Virus genome (UHGV): UHGV-0208736
Reading direction: 5' to 3' (one strand)
From: a virus
DNA: 31,562 nt
Position numbers and translations under genes: made by a program. Shown here piece by piece: positions 24,583 to 31,562 of the stretch; positions within the stretch are counted from its first letter, which is position 1, and each line of letters opens with the position of its first letter. The notes under the pieces are model-generated. The model saw only the letters and a list, made by a program, of their open reading frames with translations, had not been told where the DNA came from and searched no databases.

Positions 24583-24999
24583 ATGAAACTTTCAGATTTT
24601 TATTTCGAAGAGAAAGCACTGGTAGGCAAGAAGATGCCGATTCTGCTTCCAAACGGCGAAGACTCAGGGGAGTGGCTTAACGTTGTAAACCCTGATGCGG
24701 ATGTCGCCGTTAAAGCGGGGCGCGCTTTCATTATTGCGTACCGTCGCGGACTGGCGCGTTTCGAAGAACTGGAAAAAGCCGCCAAAGATTCCGGCGACTA
24801 TACTGAATATAACCTGGCGGTCAACGAACTGGCGGAAGACCTCAACCGGCAACTTGCAGCAGAAGTCGTAAACGGCTGGAGCTTTGATGAGCCTTTCTCT
24901 AAGGAAGCGTTTAACAAATTGCTGGACCAGTTCAAGGCCTTAGGCACACAGGTAGCAGCGTTCCATAACGCCGAGCGCAAAGCATTACAGGAAAAGTAG
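24583..24999 (+). CDS. tail assembly chaperone (gpG-like)
   Basis: 138 aa acidic protein directly upstream of tape measure gene; SD AAGGA; ends at slippery GGAAAAG-TAG. Confidence 0.55.
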   Translation: MKLSDFYFEEKALVGKKMPILLPNGEDSGEWLNVVNPDADVAVKAGRAFIIAYRRGLARFEELEKAAKDSGDYTEYNLAVNELAEDLNRQLAAEVVNGWSFDEPFSKEAFNKLLDQFKALGTQVAAFHNAERKALQEK

Positions 25000-25364
25000 A
25001 CGCGCTGTACAGGTTCGCCACCTACGAGTTTGTGGATAAGCATAAAATCAGAGAGTTTGATTCTATAGCTGACGGGCACGAACAGGCGCTTATCGCGATG
25101 GGTGTAATCGATAAGAAAAAACGTGCAGCGCGACGGGGTGGGCCAGAATGCCCGCCCCTTTTTATATCCACCTTTGAAACGTACTGTGACATTAAGTTTA
25201 CGCGACACGTGCGCGAGGACGCTGTAGTATTGTTTGCAAGAGAATCCGTTACGTGGCAAGACCTGAAAGCCTATCTCGATGTTACGCAAAAACAGCTTAG
25301 CCTGTTCGAGATAGACATTATCATGGGCTTAGAAGCAATCTTTGAAGGTAGAAATCATGGCTGA
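24969..25364 (+). CDS. tail assembly chaperone frameshift extension (gpT-like portion of a G-T fusion), -1 frame
   Basis: The -1 frame is open from 24969 to 25364, overlapping the last 10 codons of the G gene; no good in-frame ATG/SD of its own (the track start is GTG at 25032). Confidence 0.45.
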   Translation, partial: RRAQSITGKVDALYRFATYEFVDKHKIREFDSIADGHEQALIAMGVIDKKKRAARRGGPECPPLFISTFETYCDIKFTRHVREDAVVLFARESVTWQDLKAYLDVTQKQLSLFEIDIIMGLEAIFEGRNHG

Positions 25365-27630
25365 TACCGCTAGCTTGATAGTACGAGTATCATCGACCGG
25401 CGTCGATAAAACCACATCACAACTGAACGGGCTTACCAAAGCCGCTGGCGCTGCCGCTGCTGCCGTTGTCAGTCTGGAAACCGCTAAGCAGGTGTTCAGC
25501 GCGCTGGTGGACTCCCAGCGCAACTTCGATAAGCTGAACTCCGGCCTCATCACGATGACCGGGAGCGCAGAGAACGCGGCTAAAGCTTTCAGCGTCCTGC
25601 AACAGTTCGCAAAAGAAACACCATACGGACTTAATCAGGCGGTGGAAGGCTTTACTAAGCTGGTGGCTCTTGGTCTGAACCCCAGCAAAGAGGCATTAAT
25701 CTCCTACGGCAACACCGCGGCCGCCATGGGTAAAGACCTTAATCAGATGATTGAGGCAGTTGCCGACGCCAGTACCTTTGAGTTTGAGCGACTAAAAGAG
25801 TTTGGCATCAAGTCGTCGCAACAGGCGGATACAGTGTCGTTCACGTTCCGCGGCGTTACCACCACGGTTAAAAAGAACTCCGAAGAGATTCAGAAATACC
25901 TCCTGAACATCGGTAACACTGATTTCGCCGGGGCGATGGAGACGCGCTCGAAGACATTAGACGGTCAGTTATCCAGCCTCGCCGACTCCTTCGATGGCCT
26001 TGTTCTCGCCGTAGCGCAGTCTGGTTTTGGTGACGCCGTAGGTGAGCAAGCGGCCACAGCGGAAGACGCTATCACGGCGCTTACCGACGCCATCGCGTCT
26101 AATGAGATAGCCGCCACGCTCCAGGATTGGGTAACGTTGTTCAATGAGTCATTCAAGTTTATTTCCGACGCCTTGAATGACCTGGCATTCGATACCGAGG
26201 ACAAATCCGTTGATATGTCTGACTCGCTGGGGACTATACCGGATGCCATCCGTGAGTGGCTGCCGGACATCCAGCAGACATTTCACGAGGTTATTGCGTG
26301 GTTCCAGCGCATTGACGATTACGCCGTAGCGCTTGGCCAGACCCTCGCCGATGTGTTTGACCCGAGCAAAACGGCAGCGCTCACATTTAAAAAACTGACT
26401 GCAGAGGCTGATGCCGCATACGACGCCAGCATAAAACGCGCAGAGGCAGAATCACAGGCCATTACCAACAGGTCTAAGCAGCGTAAGAAAGAAATTGAGG
26501 AACAGCGCAAGCAGTATGACGAGCGCAAGAAGCAAGAAATTGACTTAGCCAGCCTTGTTAATAAAAAGGGCGGAACTGGTGGGGCGGGGACAACCGACGA
26601 TAAAGCAGCAAAAGCCGCCGCCAAGAAAGCAGAGCAATTGCGTAATCAGGCGCAAGACTACCTCGACACTTTGGCCCGTCAGAACAACGACGAGTTAAAG
26701 GCTATTGACGCGCAGGAACAGCAGAAACTGGCTAAAGCAAAAGAGTTCTACAGCCAGGGCGCGCTGTCGCTGAAAGAATACGAGCAAGCAAAAACGGCTA
26801 TCGTCCTTGAAGCTGGACAAAAACGACAAGATGAACTGGATAAACGCCAGAAAGAAGCTCAGGAAAAGCAGCAGAAAGGCGACGACTTCATGGCTCAGAT
26901 TATGGGCCAGAACGCCACTGAGCTTGAGCTTCTCGACATCCAGGAACAGCAGAAACTGGCGGTCGCCGATAAATACCGCGAACAGGGGCTGATTAACGAG
27001 GAACAGTATCAGGCGGCACTTAACGCTATCAACGAGCAATACGCAACCAAGCGTGCCGACGCAACGGCAACCGCCTTTGGTAATATGGCCTCAAACATCG
27101 GGTCCGCGTTGGGTGAGGCTTCTGGTGCGTATAAGGCATTCGCTATTGTGCAAGCCACTATCGCCACGTACACCGCAGCTATTGAAGCATATAAGTCAAC
27201 GGCCGCTATCCCTGTAGTTGGCCCGTTCCTGGCCCCCGTAGCCGCTGCCGCTGCCGTTGGGGCTGGGATGGCGCAGATTTCCGCTATCAGGTCTGCGCGT
27301 GAACAGGGCGGCCAGCTATCAGCGGGGCAGGCTTCCACCATCGCTGAACGTGGTAAACCAGAAGTTATCATGCCCGCTAGCGCATCACGTGTACGCACAG
27401 CACAGCAAATGAAAGAAATTATGGGGCAAAACGGGTCTTCTTCCGGACCGTCTAATGTTACCATCGTAAACAACACGAGTTCTCAAATCGGCAACGTATC
27501 CACTGAGCAAGACGATGAGGGGCGTCTTCGTATCATCATCGAAGAGCAAGTTGCCGCATCTTTGCAGAACAGCAACAGTAAGATTAGCAAGGCCCGCAAG
27601 GCCACAAGAAACGCGCCGGGGTTCAAGTAA
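25357..27630 (+). CDS. tail tape measure protein
   Basis: 757 aa from ATG 25357; long Ala/Gln/Lys/Glu-rich coiled-coil; hydrophobic Gly/Ala-rich segment (AIPVVGPFLAPVAAAAAVGAGMAQ); internal in-frame repeats; follows G/GT. Confidence 0.8.
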   Translation: MADTASLIVRVSSTGVDKTTSQLNGLTKAAGAAAAAVVSLETAKQVFSALVDSQRNFDKLNSGLITMTGSAENAAKAFSVLQQFAKETPYGLNQAVEGFTKLVALGLNPSKEALISYGNTAAAMGKDLNQMIEAVADASTFEFERLKEFGIKSSQQADTVSFTFRGVTTTVKKNSEEIQKYLLNIGNTDFAGAMETRSKTLDGQLSSLADSFDGLVLAVAQSGFGDAVGEQAATAEDAITALTDAIASNEIAATLQDWVTLFNESFKFISDALNDLAFDTEDKSVDMSDSLGTIPDAIREWLPDIQQTFHEVIAWFQRIDDYAVALGQTLADVFDPSKTAALTFKKLTAEADAAYDASIKRAEAESQAITNRSKQRKKEIEEQRKQYDERKKQEIDLASLVNKKGGTGGAGTTDDKAAKAAAKKAEQLRNQAQDYLDTLARQNNDELKAIDAQEQQKLAKAKEFYSQGALSLKEYEQAKTAIVLEAGQKRQDELDKRQKEAQEKQQKGDDFMAQIMGQNATELELLDIQEQQKLAVADKYREQGLINEEQYQAALNAINEQYATKRADATATAFGNMASNIGSALGEASGAYKAFAIVQATIATYTAAIEAYKSTAAIPVVGPFLAPVAAAAAVGAGMAQISAIRSAREQGGQLSAGQASTIAERGKPEVIMPASASRVRTAQQMKEIMGQNGSSSGPSNVTIVNNTSSQIGNVSTEQDDEGRLRIIIEEQVAASLQNSNSKISKARKATRNAPGFK

Positions 27631-28130
27631 TGAGCGACTTATTTTTTCCACGTAGCCTTAAGCCTATCGTATCGAAAGGCTACTCGATGACCAGACGTAA
27701 CAACGTCTGGAGTGTCGATTTAGCCGGTGGCGGTGTGCGTCAGGGTCGTGACACGTATTACGACGTGTTCCCGATAAGCGTAACTCTGGTTACATCAGCG
27801 TTAGGGCGGCAGGCGTTTCTGTCGTTCCTTGAGAAAGTAGACGGCGGTGCGTCAAGTTTCTGGATGGCGCACGACTTCGGCATGGGTATCGAAGATTACC
27901 AGGTAACAATCACGTCCACCATCGCGGAATCCACCGAAGACGGCATTAATTGGACGATTTCTTTCACAGCAACCGCGGAGAAATCACCGTTTCAGGATGA
28001 AGATAACCATTGCCTTGTTAACAATCTGCCGGATTTGTATGGTTGCTATGGTGACGGGCTGGGATGCTTCCTTAAAGCCTACGGAACCGCGCAATCAACG
28101 TTTCCACGAATTTGGGACCCGATGCAATGA
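27630..28130 (+). CDS. minor tail protein, gpM-like
   Basis: 166 aa; ISVTLVTSALGRQAFLSFLEKVDGGASSFWM parallels the lambda gpM pattern (SVTLSV...FLEEHGGWKSFLW, from memory); first gene after tape measure. Confidence 0.5.
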   Translation: MSDLFFPRSLKPIVSKGYSMTRRNNVWSVDLAGGGVRQGRDTYYDVFPISVTLVTSALGRQAFLSFLEKVDGGASSFWMAHDFGMGIEDYQVTITSTIAESTEDGINWTISFTATAEKSPFQDEDNHCLVNNLPDLYGCYGDGLGCFLKAYGTAQSTFPRIWDPMQ

Positions 28131-28642
28131 GCCAGGAATCAGTAGAAGCAGCCTATCGCCGTAAGCTGGCCTCGAACCCCGACGGCGAGATGGACTACAT
28201 CACGTTGCAAATCAGCCACCCGTTACTATCGAAGACGTACTATCTTGTGCGCGGGTTGCAAGAACTTACGGCAACGCTAGAGACGGGCGAAACCATCACA
28301 TTCGAACCTACCCCGATGGAAGCGTCGGGGGCCGCTAACAACAGTGATATGGACCAGACGACGACGTTTACTTTACCGGATATCCTCAATCAACTTGATG
28401 ATGAGATGGGCAAAATCCCGATGAGTAATACTGAGCTGCCGAAGTTCGTCTTCCGCCGTTATGTCAGCACCGACCTGTCTTATCCCGCTGACGGTCCTGT
28501 CGTGTACGAGTTGCAGGCCATCAACCAGGAGAAGGGAGAGTTCTCCGCGGATGTTGGTACACCTATGCTGAACCAACGAAGCACTGGTATACTGATGACA
28601 CCTAAAGAGATACCGTTATTACGCGGCCTGTTGACCACATGA
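28127..28642 (+). CDS. minor tail protein, gpL-like
   Basis: 171 aa from ATG 28127 (ATGA overlap with upstream stop); position between gpM-like and gpK-like genes. Confidence 0.45.
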   Translation: MSQESVEAAYRRKLASNPDGEMDYITLQISHPLLSKTYYLVRGLQELTATLETGETITFEPTPMEASGAANNSDMDQTTTFTLPDILNQLDDEMGKIPMSNTELPKFVFRRYVSTDLSYPADGPVVYELQAINQEKGEFSADVGTPMLNQRSTGILMTPKEIPLLRGLLTT

Positions 28643-29004
28643 ATATTAACGACTACACGGGCATACCTTACGACTTTCGCAAACGCAATTGCTGGCATCA
28701 CGTGCGCATTGTTCGCGCAGATGCAGGATTAGAAACCCCGGCGTTCGACGTTACAAGCCCAACGGCGATTAACGAAGCGTTTGATGAAGGGCATCGCAAC
28801 ACGAAGGGGCTTACAAAGATTGATAATCCTGAAAACTTATGTGCGGTGCTTATGGGGTATCGCCGCGGTGGTCGTATCGTGTGGCATGCAGGAGTTTACT
28901 TCGACGGGATGGTGAGTCATTGTGAGCTTGCCTCCCGTCAGGTACGGCTTGACAGGCTGGCGGACCTAAGAGACACGTACACGGAGATTGAATTTTGGCG
29001 ATAA
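28639..29004 (+). CDS. tail assembly protein with NlpC/P60-type peptidase motifs (gpK-like)
   Basis: 121 aa; candidate Cys/His catalytic residues in NCWHHV, WHAGVYF and SHCE. Confidence 0.5.
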   Translation: MNINDYTGIPYDFRKRNCWHHVRIVRADAGLETPAFDVTSPTAINEAFDEGHRNTKGLTKIDNPENLCAVLMGYRRGGRIVWHAGVYFDGMVSHCELASRQVRLDRLADLRDTYTEIEFWR

Positions 29005-31550
29005 TCCTGCACTACACGCGAAACGCTGATGGCGCTTTCGACCGTACAAAACACGTCGGGATGCCGATGGAATTTGTCGTTAACCGTATCCCGGACGGCG
29101 TGCCTGTGCGCGTCTACCTCGGCGAAATTGGTGACGATACAGATGTAACTGACGATTTCTACGCGCTTAAAGATGAAGACGCCGTGTACCACGTTATTGA
29201 GGGCGCAGGTAGCGGGGCGCTTGGTGCCGTTAGTAAGGTGTTCGGTTTTATCCTTAAACCAATTGCTAAGTTGTTTGGGCTTAGCCAGACGTCTAACGCC
29301 AACTACACGGCGACAAATAATCAGACAACATCGCCTAATAACAGTCTCACAGACCGCTCAAACAAGCCGCGTCCTTACGAGCGCTCTTATGACATTTGCG
29401 GAACTGTGCAGACAATCCCCAACGACCTGATGCAGACGTATAAGGCGTTCAACTCCACGGGTGCTTTGCTGGAGTATTCGTACTACGACGCGGGGCGCGG
29501 GCATCTGCATATTGAGGCTGACGGCGTCACGGAAGGCGACACCCTGATAAGCGACATCACAGGTTCCTCTGTTGCCGTGTATGCCCCGTACACGTCACCT
29601 AACAATACCACATCCCCGCAACTACAAATCGGCGACGTCATTGACCAGAAACTCTATGTAACATACTCCAACGACGACGTTGACGGTATTGTGTTGAAAG
29701 CGCCAAACGATATCGGAGCTAATCCAAGCGCCGGCGGCACCGCCAAACGTATTTCAACCACCGGCTACCTATACGACCCGTCTGGTGACTCTGCTTTTTC
29801 TGAGTTTCTTAGTGTTGGTGATGTCGCAGTGCTGAGCAATTTTGACGTTAAGGACGTCACTAACCTGAACGGCTCATTTGAGGTTTTATATGTCGACGAC
29901 TTCGAGGTTCGGTTGTACGTCGGGAATATAGGAAATTGGGGAAACCTTAATAGCGGAGAGACTTACGCGCTTACAGAGCGTTCAGATGCGTTCATTGGCC
30001 CGAGCAACACCTATGACGTATCCCTTACTGACTGGTATTACATGGTTCGCGGAGAGGTCGACCGTGTGCTTGCTAACGTTGCGGGGCAAAACGGCCTCTA
30101 CAAATACGACGGCGGCTATAACCGCACCAGCGTAACCGTAGAACTCCAGTACCAGATGATTGACTCCCAACGCAACCCTTTGAGCGACATTTACACGGTA
30201 CGGGCTACAATTACGGGCAATAATACCGATTACGTCGGTACGTCTATCTACGGGCAGTTGCCTACGGCATCGCGTTTCCGCGCCCGTATGCGCCGTATAA
30301 CGAATTTCGATAAAGACTACGACGGAACGGTAAGCGACGAGATAACGTTCATCAACCTGTACGGGCAGTCTCTGGACACAACCCCGCATTACGGCAACCG
30401 AACTACCGTACATTGCGCCCGTAAACAGACGCCACGTGCCGCAAGTATCGACAACCCGGAACTGCGCATGATTGCAACCGAGATGTGCTTCAAATACTTA
30501 GGCAATGGGGTATTCGATACAGTAATGACCCCGAACACGCAGGCCGTGCAGTCCCTAATTCGACTGGCGCGCGACCCCGCGGTGGGTAATCTGGAACTGA
30601 CAACGGCAAACATGGATAAGTTGCTTGCCGTGCAGGAAGAGATTGAGTCCTATTTCGGAAGTGAGTTAGCTGGTCAGTTCTGCTACACGTTCGACGACTA
30701 CGACACAACCATGCAAGACATCGTTCAGACCGTAGCGGAAGCTGTGTTCTGTACTGCGTACCGTAAAGGTGCGGATATTATGCTGCGATTCGACCGTCCG
30801 GTTGCTGGGCCAGAGATGGTGTTCACCCACCGCAGTAAGACGACCGGAACGGAGAAATGGACACGCACGTTCAATGATTCTACTACCTACGATAGTCTGT
30901 CTTTCTCGTACATCGACCCGGATACGAACGTACAGGAAACTATTTATATCCCGGAAGAACTCGGTACCAACACCGAGGAATACGAATCAAAGGGTGTACG
31001 TAACTATCAGCAGGCATATTGGCTGGCGTGGCGTCGCTACCAGCGCAATACATTAAGTAAAGTTGTTGTAGAGTTCGAAGCTACGGAAGAAGGCGCTCTT
31101 GCCACCCCCGGAGGGGTAATCAGCGTGGTTAAAGGTTCACGTATTGCACCCCAAGACGGCTATGTTGTTGCCGTTAATGGGCTTACACTTACGCTATCCC
31201 AACCTGTTACGTTTACCCCCGGAGACGACCACTCCATCATTCTTAAGAAGCGCGACGGCTCAGTACAGAGTATCTCCGTTATCAAAGGAAGTCACGACCG
31301 CGAAGTGATTATGCTCTCCGCGCCGGAGGAGGCAATCTACACGGGGAATAGCGCGCTAAAAACTGAGTTTTCATTCGGCAACGAAGCAAGGCATAATGCT
31401 CAGAAGATAGTTGTTTCTTCAATCGACCCGGGCGACGACCGCACGGTCAAGATTACAGGCTACAACTATGACGACGGATTCTATAAATACGACGGCGTCG
31501 CGCCATACGGCAGCGGTTTCTCCGACGGATTCAGCAATGGCTTTAATTAA
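28995..31550 (+). CDS. central tail fibre / host-specificity protein (gpJ-like) with gpI-like N-terminal segment; start codon uncertain (TTG 28995 with GGAG SD, or ATG 29061)
   Basis: 851 aa; N-terminal DEDAVYHVIEGAGSGALGAVSKVFGFIL parallels the lambda gpI motif (DGAVIHIVPRVAGAKSGGVFQIVLG, from memory); remaining ~700 aa large tip protein; ends at TAA 31548-31550. Confidence 0.6.
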   Translation: MAIILHYTRNADGAFDRTKHVGMPMEFVVNRIPDGVPVRVYLGEIGDDTDVTDDFYALKDEDAVYHVIEGAGSGALGAVSKVFGFILKPIAKLFGLSQTSNANYTATNNQTTSPNNSLTDRSNKPRPYERSYDICGTVQTIPNDLMQTYKAFNSTGALLEYSYYDAGRGHLHIEADGVTEGDTLISDITGSSVAVYAPYTSPNNTTSPQLQIGDVIDQKLYVTYSNDDVDGIVLKAPNDIGANPSAGGTAKRISTTGYLYDPSGDSAFSEFLSVGDVAVLSNFDVKDVTNLNGSFEVLYVDDFEVRLYVGNIGNWGNLNSGETYALTERSDAFIGPSNTYDVSLTDWYYMVRGEVDRVLANVAGQNGLYKYDGGYNRTSVTVELQYQMIDSQRNPLSDIYTVRATITGNNTDYVGTSIYGQLPTASRFRARMRRITNFDKDYDGTVSDEITFINLYGQSLDTTPHYGNRTTVHCARKQTPRAASIDNPELRMIATEMCFKYLGNGVFDTVMTPNTQAVQSLIRLARDPAVGNLELTTANMDKLLAVQEEIESYFGSELAGQFCYTFDDYDTTMQDIVQTVAEAVFCTAYRKGADIMLRFDRPVAGPEMVFTHRSKTTGTEKWTRTFNDSTTYDSLSFSYIDPDTNVQETIYIPEELGTNTEEYESKGVRNYQQAYWLAWRRYQRNTLSKVVVEFEATEEGALATPGGVISVVKGSRIAPQDGYVVAVNGLTLTLSQPVTFTPGDDHSIILKKRDGSVQSISVIKGSHDREVIMLSAPEEAIYTGNSALKTEFSFGNEARHNAQKIVVSSIDPGDDRTVKITGYNYDDGFYKYDGVAPYGSGFSDGFSNGFN

Positions 31551-31562
31551 AGAGGACTCTAT

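Follow-up and report, generated by a model that had tools for sequence, protein, structure and literature searches.

The 851-aa open reading frame (ORF) of the window (the whole 31,562-nt stretch of phage DNA that was analysed) probably encodes one polypeptide, translated from a TTG codon at position 28995, which unites on a single chain the counterparts of two lambda proteins, gpI and the first two-thirds of gpJ. In the layout we propose, translation from TTG 28995 would be coupled to the upstream K-like gene, and the chain would run from a beta-grasp domain (residues 1-70) through a hinge and helix (70-96), a linker (97-112), and a strand segment (113-155) to the hub domains (156-840). The genes and signals on which this reading draws are as follows.

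27630-28130, + strand: protein at the distal-tail-protein position, immediately following the tape measure gene (PHROG 384, E = 7.9e-38)
28112-28642, + strand: gpL-position hub protein 1 (BH1P type), DUF1833 (Pfam E = 6e-16; PHROG 396, E = 1.3e-50)
28639-29004, + strand: gpK-like protein, 121 aa, with a predicted NlpC/P60-type domain only and no JAB/MPN domain (PHROG 329)
28983-28986, + strand: Shine-Dalgarno (SD) sequence GGAG, 8 nt (attgaatt) before the TTG, read from the sequence
28995-28997, + strand: TTG start codon of the 851-aa ORF, within the final 10 nt of the upstream gene, with translational coupling (sequence context and conservation)
28995-31550, + strand: whole ORF, 851 aa, TipJ-family BH2P-type tail-tip hub with an N-terminal gpI-like module (profile, sequence, and fold matches)
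1-2238, + strand: tailspike gene (PHROG 29731, E = 6.3e-45; Pfam Tail_spike_N)

The hub gene, the last large tail gene, belongs to a K1G-like coliphage, whose tail module contains a programmed frameshift at another place, in the chaperone pair. The genes around the distal-tail-position protein are arranged as in K1G, Sf11, and Carvaje. With a separate DUF1833 BH1P upstream of the BH2P homologue, the locus encodes a two-protein hub of the Sf11/Chi type. The K-like protein aligns over its whole length with the NlpC/P60 part of PHROG 329 (positions 541-655, E = 3.4e-12), the same region to which residues 68-178 of lambda gpK align (E = 7.3e-10), and its relatives are annotated as peptidoglycan endopeptidases. 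Neither it nor six orthologues match Pfam NLPC_P60, and direct BLASTP gives E = 0.2; its putative catalytic Cys lies in NCWHH. It does not match Prok-JAB, which lambda gpK does match. A PDB sequence search found no homologue of the K-like protein or of the DUF1833 protein.

Start codon and continuity of the frame

The 851-aa hub ORF starts at TTG 28995. The stop codon (TAA) of the upstream 121-aa ORF lies at 29002-29004, giving a 10-nt overlap between the two genes. Because an in-frame TGA is located one codon 5' of the TTG, no earlier start codon is listed for the frame, and a start farther upstream is ruled out. The context GGAG-ATTGAATT-TTG-GCG is found again in K1G, while Schulenburg and f18SE have GGAG with one or two spacer substitutions, and Serratia phage Eta has a GAGG box, one base downstream, instead of GGAG. 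The TTG is thus kept in four related phages (Kagunavirus, Jerseyvirus, and Eta), and ATG occupies the homologous position in Sf11, Carvaje, two Vibrio phages, and an Acinetobacter phage. The RefSeq annotation of K1G already uses the TTG. The original prediction of a TTG start overlapping the gpK-like stop therefore stands, based on the GGAG at 8 nt, the conserved TTG, the 10-nt overlap read in the sequence, and the conservation of the first 22 residues described next.

The alternative is that translation begins at ATG 29061 (Met-23) or ATG 29067 (Met-25) and that the preceding 22-24 codons are untranslated. ATG is the commoner start codon, and many public automatic gene calls give proteins of 824-829 aa versus 848-851 aa, consistent with a downstream start near Met-23/25. 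We nevertheless regard such a start as very improbable. Residues 1-22 (MA[IL].xHYTRN...) are conserved in an alignment of homologues that are 42-63% identical, and synonymous differences occur across these codons at the DNA level; conservation as protein argues that ATG 29061 is not the start. In addition, the GGAG box is spaced correctly for the TTG, distant relatives place an ATG where the TTG stands, and residues 1-22 make strands 1 and 2 of a confidently predicted beta-grasp domain. Many automatic gene calls are 22-27 residues short of the full-length form, and a start at Met-23/25 would remove two strands of a folded domain.

Recoding by frameshift, readthrough, or internal initiation could in principle yield separate I-like and J-like proteins, and a boundary or recoding event hidden from ORF calling had been suggested. 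None was found in the window. By tblastn, 651 of 969 phage records, those that hold most of the protein, have an uninterrupted frame, and each listed row covering at least 84% of the protein is a single piece. Residues 75-130 contain no in-frame Met, no other start with an SD sequence, and no slippery-site candidate; an internal start in the linker is ruled out by the lack of a start codon with an SD sequence, and a frameshift is ruled out by the continuous frame in relatives. The linker (residues 97-112) is also predicted to be disordered. In favor of recoding are an in-frame stop in the linker of one relative, Ro145c2YLVW, and the genuine programmed frameshift in the chaperone pair, but given the open frame here and in relatives we consider recoding extremely improbable. 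The fused form is instead the rule.

The 851-aa ORF belongs to PHROG 469 (E = 1.4e-251), a full-length family of 903 positions. The family of its N-terminus has at least 800 representatives at E ≤ 1e-3 (clusters at 50% identity). Among the top 150 representatives, about three-quarters are 750-1526 aa long and the rest are 153-600 aa (probably contig-truncated fragments); with one exception, the match falls in the first ~250 residues. The fused form is the norm in at least 800 clusters. Lambda gpI itself matches the J family PHROG 31 at positions 132-276, which shows that this family likewise contains I-J fusions. Fusions of TAPI to TAPJ have been reported in some prophages, where they occur with NlpC/P60-only K proteins (Iyer, Burroughs and Aravind 2006, PMC1779556). 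The fused I-J arrangement is already described and widespread in phages, and thus ordinary; with I-J fusions and single-chain hubs already documented, it leaves knowledge of the tail tip unchanged.

Domain layout of the 851-aa protein

The features within the ORF, with the basis for each, are as follows.

28995-29204, + strand: predicted beta-grasp (ubiquitin-like) domain, residues 1-70, beta-beta-alpha-beta-(short helix)-beta (AF2 models)
29202-29225, + strand: Gly-rich hinge GAGSGALG, residues 70-77, straight after the last beta-strand (alignment, AF2)
29226-29282, + strand: amphipathic helix, residues 78-96 (AF2, family N-termini)
29283-29330, + strand: polar, low-complexity, disordered linker, residues 97-112 (pLDDT < 50)
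29331-29459, + strand: most conserved segment, residues 113-155 (SPNNSLTDRsNKPRPYERsYDICG...), with short strands (alignment)
29460-31514, + strand: gpJ-like hub body, residues 156-840, with hub domains and an FNIII-like domain (NF040662, Foldseek)
31506-31550, + strand: disordered C-terminal tail, residues 838-851 (YGSGFSDGFSNGFN), and stop (pLDDT < 50 at 840-851)

Structure prediction, which had been proposed as a check, bore out the overall arrangement: residues 1-70 are modelled as a beta-grasp and a gpJ-type hub fold follows. In the AF2 models, the first 70 residues have block-mean pLDDT values of 74-89 and a beta-beta-alpha-beta-beta layout, so the N-terminus of the hub protein is predicted to adopt the ThiS/MoaD-like beta-grasp fold that is a criterion for TAPI. 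DSSP coil starts at residue 70, and pLDDT drops below 50 from residue 72-73. The hinge is AGGG in most close relatives and is not kept in the wider family, which has YP.(D/E)P at the equivalent place. For residues 80-93, the AF2 models show a low-confidence helix. At this place, most family members have a strongly hydrophobic, TM-like helix, while the hub ORF has an amphipathic helix with three lysines; the helix at 78-96 would be the counterpart of this TM-like helix and of gpI helices H1/H2. The linker probably forms a natural module boundary, and in Ro145c2YLVW, a related Kagunavirus phage, the in-frame stop is accompanied by a short duplication exactly at the linker. Beyond it, the segment 113-155 has invariant columns at S113, L118, N123, R126, and G136, and its place matches that of the C-terminal strand region in gpI.

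No Pfam or NCBIfam label covers the N-terminal ~110 residues, although the module occurs in hundreds of hub-protein clusters. Homologue searches with N-terminal fragments or the alignment returned almost only short, contig-truncated proteins that bore no Pfam labels and served as alignment input only.

The hub body is readily recognized. NCBIfam NF040662 (attach_TipJ_rel) matches residues 354-831 (E = 1.7e-112, 376 bits versus a cut-off of 140), and there are weak Pfam matches to FNIII-A_GpJ and Phage-tail_3. By Foldseek, the hub AF2 model (mean pLDDT 84.7) matches Sf11 gp14 (E = 1.5e-50, TM 0.61/0.70), lambda gpJ (8xcg_J; E = 4.9e-29, TM 0.68 on target), and the tail-tip chains of T1 (9l9p_S; E = 2e-23) and T5 (7zhj_b; E = 5.6e-10), the latter being the baseplate hub protein pb3 (PMC10721106). 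T5 pb3 carries its plug as an insertion within the hub and has a fused gpL-like domain as well, whereas here hub protein 1 is separate and the plug-like segment is N-terminal. By phmmer, Sf11 gp14 (9occ_E) matches at E = 2.9e-26, including residues 32-245 on gp14 34-221.

Residue 851, the last of the protein, lies about 10 residues past the last folded hub element of the AF2 model. K1G lacks the tail at 838-851, having TAA there versus TAC here. The long C-terminal central fibre and receptor-binding domain of lambda gpJ (1132 aa) are absent from the 851-aa protein, and a tailspike gene comes next. The protein is thus a compact tail-tip hub of the TipJ family (BH2P type), not a long fibre, and "central tail fibre," as it had been called, is a misnomer.

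Relationship of the N-terminal module to lambda gpI

Is the N-terminal module a gpI? The likeness to gpI had been proposed from the motif AVYHVIEGAGSGALGAV (residues 63-79, nt 29181-29231), and this evidence does not hold: in a BLASTP comparison with gpI, residues 1-282 reach E = 2.3, which is at chance level, with the motif on gpI 84-102 as the best HSP. The gpI family profile, PF06805, found no match in 60 scanned sequences (the hub protein, five relatives, and 54 diverse family N-termini), even at E ≤ 1-10; as a control, lambda gpI matches at E = 1.1e-28 and the profile spans gpI residues 14-97. A profile of the 54 N-termini searched against the PDB did not retrieve gpI chains. When the module was compared to viral models (BFVD) by Foldseek, family members alone were significant, with Ubl proteins at E ~0.2 and a gpI-type tail assembly protein at E = 0.76.

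Profile-profile alignment gives a collinear but non-significant result. We ran hhalign in local mode, as the global-mode alignment was meaningless, with a gpI profile of nine sequences from annotated phages; another 80 lambda-gpI loci, 99-100% identical to lambda, were unused. Family positions 1-154 align collinearly with gpI 14-210, at a probability of ≤7.3%. Segment 113-155 falls on gpI 170-197 with identical N-to-G spacing (E = 0.005-0.03, probability ≤7.3%), and the Ubl parts of module and gpI align at E = 0.37. gpJ residues 20-110 align to family positions 156-230, downstream of the conserved segment, again without significance.

The original prediction of an I/J fusion is therefore upheld in part. 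Alignment places the ORF with gpJ (NF040662; Foldseek E = 4.9e-29), and the single ORF has an N-terminal module in the place of gene I; membership of the gpI family is not supported, with no PF06805 match. The module is encoded between the K (peptidase) and J functions, with its start in the final 10 nt of the K-like gene; it is, with partial support, at least a positional and structural counterpart of gpI and may also share its ancestry.

Comparison with lambda shows what is kept and what differs. The order K, I, J is retained, with I and J on one chain here versus two polypeptides in lambda, and the order beta-grasp, Gly-rich or hydrophobic helix, strand segment, and hub domains is predicted to be common to both. 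In lambda gpI, the N-domain is unresolved and is followed by the hydrophobic helices H1/H2, a plug at 159-175, and then strands (PMC11101478). Its two helices are long, Gly-rich, and hydrophobic, whereas the hub here has a single amphipathic helix. Lambda gpK also has the JAB domain that the K partner here lacks. The TAPI-TAPJ fusions (PMC1779556) have the architecture and neighbourhood predicted here, namely a Ubl fused to J and a K protein that is NlpC/P60 without JAB; however, they are recognised by sequence as TAPI, whereas the divergence of this module is too great for Pfam or hhalign. From its sequences, the module may represent a separate and much larger branch than recognised TAPI, or an analogue.

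A different explanation is that the module is unrelated to gpI, being a lineage-specific beta-grasp decoration with a membrane-active helix on a TipJ-type hub, so that the likeness is coincidental or convergent. The failure of BLASTP, PF06805, and the PDB profile search, together with an hhalign probability of 7.3% or lower, fits this explanation, as do the confinement of the Gly-rich "GG" hinge to the Kaguna/Jersey clade and the fact that the beta-grasp is a very common fold. We consider it unlikely. The module lies between the K-like gene and the J body, as gene I does in lambda; the four elements occur in the same order and are collinear in alignments; and in a second J family (PHROG 31; PMC1779556) bona fide gpI is joined to J. 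The N-terminal part of hub gp23 from Aeromonas phage Avs-1 has also been reported as structurally equivalent to the gpI tripod, lying in the lumen under the tape measure C-terminus (PMC13612043). Avs-1 gp23 is, by its description, a compact single-chain gpJ-like hub (cryo-EM) like the one here.

Tail-tip assembly and possible cleavage

In lambda, gpI is a lumenal trimeric plug under the tape measure C-terminus (PMC10721106, PMC11101478). By analogy with other phages, the module may have a lumenal-plug role, and the gpI equivalence would point to the residues expected to plug the tail lumen. The closest structure is that of the Sf11 baseplate hub 2 protein, gp14, in which residues 81-827 of 828 were modelled by cryo-EM (PDB 9OCC chain E; PMC12724387). 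It is a direct homologue, a single 828-aa chain with the same N-terminal module, though only about 19-26% identical. Sf11 also has a DUF1833-type hub-1 partner and a downstream tailspike; it differs in having no K-like gene adjoining and a much larger distal tail protein (457 aa) that carries the tailspike adaptor. The first modelled residue of gp14 falls inside the helix equivalent to residues 78-96, and the counterpart of the N-domain is unseen in both the lambda gpI and Sf11 gp14 maps. The beta-grasp domain is probably a flexible or assembly-stage module.

The missing density could also reflect two products from one ORF, with the Ubl acting as a pro-domain that is released by cleavage behind the Gly-rich hinge (~70-77) as the tail tip assembles, possibly through the adjacent K-like protein; the suggested separate boundary would then be post-translational. 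Processing of TAPI by the gpK peptidase domains was proposed by Iyer et al. (PMC1779556), and the beta-grasp domain of close relatives ends in E-[GS]-AGGG. The structural models begin at residue 81 of Sf11 gp14 and at 101 or 134-135 of lambda gpI (PMC12724387, PMC11101478, PMC10721106), gpI residue 101 being the second Gly of an SGG motif (residues 99-101), and the linker withstands a genetic split in a related phage. However, cleavage is hypothetical for every member, and flexibility explains the unseen density equally well. The GG-like hinge is not kept in the wider family, Sf11 lacks a K-like gene between gp16 and gp14, and the K-like protein here lacks the JAB domain on which the original proposal relied. 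We therefore judge cleavage quite unlikely. Less likely still is the specific scheme in which the papain-fold NlpC/P60 K-like protein removes the Ubl pro-domain at its Gly-rich C-terminus (E-G-A-G-G/S-G) and the freed helix plugs the lumen. If true, it would represent JAB-independent Ubl/"DUB"-type maturation in a very large siphophage hub family (at least 800 clusters, 50% identity).

We propose, based on the Sf11, Avs-1, and lambda structures, that three hub copies, the DUF1833 hub-1 trimer, and the distal tail protein ring would form a closed cone at the tail end. Treating the N-terminal module as the positional counterpart of gpI helps to interpret tail-tip modules in Guernseyvirinae and in Sf11-like phages, among them therapeutic K1 and Salmonella phages. 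The tailspike would take over receptor binding: with the window ends joined, its gene comes directly downstream of the hub gene, and both ends are contiguous in K1G.

Tail module and start of the hub ORF

The window is from a K1G-like coliphage (Kagunavirus, Guernseyvirinae), and positions 27600-31562 share 90-91.5% identity over their full length with K1G, K1H, phiWAO78-1, and many others. The tail genes are arranged as follows.

Tail genes of the window
24583-24999 and 25032-25364: tail-assembly chaperone pair
25342-27630: tape measure protein
27630-28130: distal-tail-position protein
28112-28642: DUF1833 protein (gpL-position, "hub 1")
28639-29004: gpK-like protein, 121 aa
28995-31550, + strand: hub ORF, 851 aa
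1-2238: tailspike gene (PHROG 29731, Pfam Tail_spike_N)

One ORF encodes the whole hub protein. Its TTG start is coupled to the upstream gene, and its product has a TipJ hub body preceded by a predicted beta-grasp domain. The TTG at 28995-28997, the GGAG (28983-28986) with its 8-nt spacer, and the overlap with the stop of the gpK-like gene (29002-29004; 10 nt) are all present in the sequence, as originally predicted. An in-frame TGA lies one codon 5' of the TTG and rules out any earlier opening of the frame. The context GGAG-ATTGAATT-TTG-GCG also occurs, allowing 1-2 changes in the spacer or SD sequence, in K1G, Schulenburg, Jerseyvirus f18SE, and Serratia phage Eta, while five much more distant relatives (Sf11, Carvaje, Vibrio PS17B.1, Vibrio 1.027.O, and Acinetobacter R3177) have ATG at the homologous position. 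Residues 1-22, which precede the next candidate start at Met-23 (ATG 29061), are conserved at the protein level (MA[IL].xHYTRN.) among homologues of 42-63% identity and, in structure models, make up strands 1 and 2 of a folded domain. Altogether, the TTG start is well supported. The RefSeq annotation of K1G already uses it; many automatic calls in public assemblies yield products of 824-829 aa, lengths that fit a start at Met-23/25.

Hub body and continuity of the reading frame

Residues 354-831 match the TipJ-related family NF040662 (NCBIfam; E 1.7e-112). The full-length AF2 model (mean pLDDT 84.7) matches the folds of Sf11 gp14 (E 1.5e-50) and lambda gpJ (E 4.9e-29), and further those of T1, T5 pb3, Chi BH2P, and the GTA hub. 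Because the chain ends about ten residues past the last hub element, the protein is a compact hub and not a long fibre, in contrast to the central tail fibre originally proposed. Where K1G has a TAA stop (L001 8512-8514), the window has TAC (in 31506-31550); as a result, the window protein, like most homologues in databases, carries 14 extra C-terminal residues, YGSGFSDGFSNGFN, predicted to be disordered.

The original prediction left open whether a separate boundary or recoding event divides this ORF. The tail module does contain a real recoding site: the two chaperone ORFs correspond to the two halves of PHROG 15027 (positions 1-138 and 152-259 of 259), are annotated in K1G as a joined CDS, and represent the usual G/GT-type programmed frameshift. 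The hub reading frame itself is continuous, and neither the linker (residues 97-112) nor its surroundings contain an SD-preceded start codon. Most of the hub protein is present in 651 phage records by tblastn, and among the matches listed, those covering at least 84% of it are single pieces. An exhaustive search with a profile of the N-terminal region returned 800 cluster representatives (E<=1e-3). Of the 150 best, about three-quarters have lengths of 750-1526 aa, the shorter entries probably being truncated, and all but one of the 150 match within their first ~250 residues. Fusion is therefore the usual condition in this very large family; recoding need not be invoked, and we reject it here. 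In Kagunavirus vB_EcoS-Ro145c2YLVW (L100 1201-1600), an in-frame TAA follows residue 108, with a flanking duplication of part of the linker (~20 aa, KLISPSQ.TPKTS.ANQ). The beta-grasp-plus-helix module is annotated there as its own 108-aa CDS, and another CDS covers the hub body. The gene may have split naturally at the linker, or the assembly may be wrong; in the former case, the linker tolerates a break.

The longest tape measure ORF begins with TTG 25342, still within the last part of the chaperone frameshift ORF and ~15 nt upstream of the start annotated in K1G (relative to ORF ends; 8-nt overlap in K1G). Either TTG 25342 or a K1G-type start ~15 nt downstream may be the true one.

The N-terminal module and lambda gpI

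By sequence, the N-terminal module (residues 1-155) is not demonstrably gpI. The motif that had suggested the likeness (residues 63-79) is real and gives the top BLASTP HSP, against gpI 84-102, but the match of residues 1-282 to lambda gpI is at chance level (E 2.3). Pfam PF06805 matched neither the window protein, five relatives, nor 54 diverse family N-termini, while gpI itself scores E 1.1e-28. A profile from these 54 N-termini finds Sf11 gp14 in the PDB and misses the gpI chains there, and Foldseek against viral models significantly matched only the family itself. When a 146-sequence family alignment was compared with nine diverse gpI proteins by hhalign, family residues 1-154 aligned fully collinearly with gpI 14-210 (E 0.034, probability 1.5%), and the conserved motif with gpI 170-197 (E 0.005).

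The proposed gpI segment fused to J holds for architecture and position but not for membership in PF06805, and five lines of evidence make "gpI-like" a fair description. The module sits precisely where the K-like gene ends and the J-like body begins, with its parts in the order beta-grasp domain, Gly-rich hinge and helix (plainly hydrophobic and TM-like in the wider family), linker ending in P-x-x-P, and conserved strand motif. In that motif, SPNNSL..R.N..R....R..DI.G, the invariant N-to-G spacing equals that in gpI N.....G..P..YG. The gpJ N-terminus aligns, weakly, at family residues ~156-230, C-terminal to the module, so the chain reads gpI then gpJ. Lambda gpI (L002 4774-5445) matches positions 132-276 of 1565 in the J-family PHROG 31 (E 3.5e-8), which shows that there are enough bona fide gpI-J fusions for them to have entered that profile. 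The arrangement is already known from 2006 comparative genomics and 2025-2026 cryo-EM: TAPI-TAPJ fusions were described beside NlpC/P60-only K proteins [Iyer et al. 2006; PMC1779556], the same K-without-JAB situation as in the window, and Sf11 gp14, a whole-length homologue of the hub protein (residues 34-221 included), has a single-chain model spanning residues 81-827 (PMC12724387). The N-domain of lambda gpI is unresolved; the protein further comprises two hydrophobic helices, a plug, and strands augmenting gpJ sheets (PMC11101478, PMC10721106).

By analogy with related structures, three hub copies, a DUF1833 trimer, and the distal tail ring would close the tail end, with residues ~78-155 in the lumen holding the tape measure C-terminus until cone opening frees them. 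The beta-grasp domain may be flexible or an assembly aid; its cleavage at the Gly-rich hinge seems unlikely.

Neighbouring genes and window ends

Within PHROG 329, the 121-aa gpK-like protein aligns to the region also matched by lambda gpK residues 68-178, that of the gpK NlpC/P60 domain. The 121-aa protein has no Pfam NLPC_P60 match and neither a match to nor room for a JAB domain. Its Cys-His pattern (NCWHH ... WHAG ... SHCE) would suit a papain-fold peptidase. Sf11 (L003 2060-2902) has no K-like gene between hub-1 (gp16) and hub-2 (gp14), where the sole ORF is one of 58 aa on the other strand; therefore, the fused hub does not always come with a K-like peptidase.

The window ends are contiguous in K1G, where "...taattaaagaggactctat" is followed by "atgtcaagcgg..." (window 31551-31562, then 1), so the tailspike ATG stands exactly at position 1. 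The window resembles a circular sequence that has been rotated, and with its ends joined, the tailspike gene directly follows the hub gene, 12 nt downstream.
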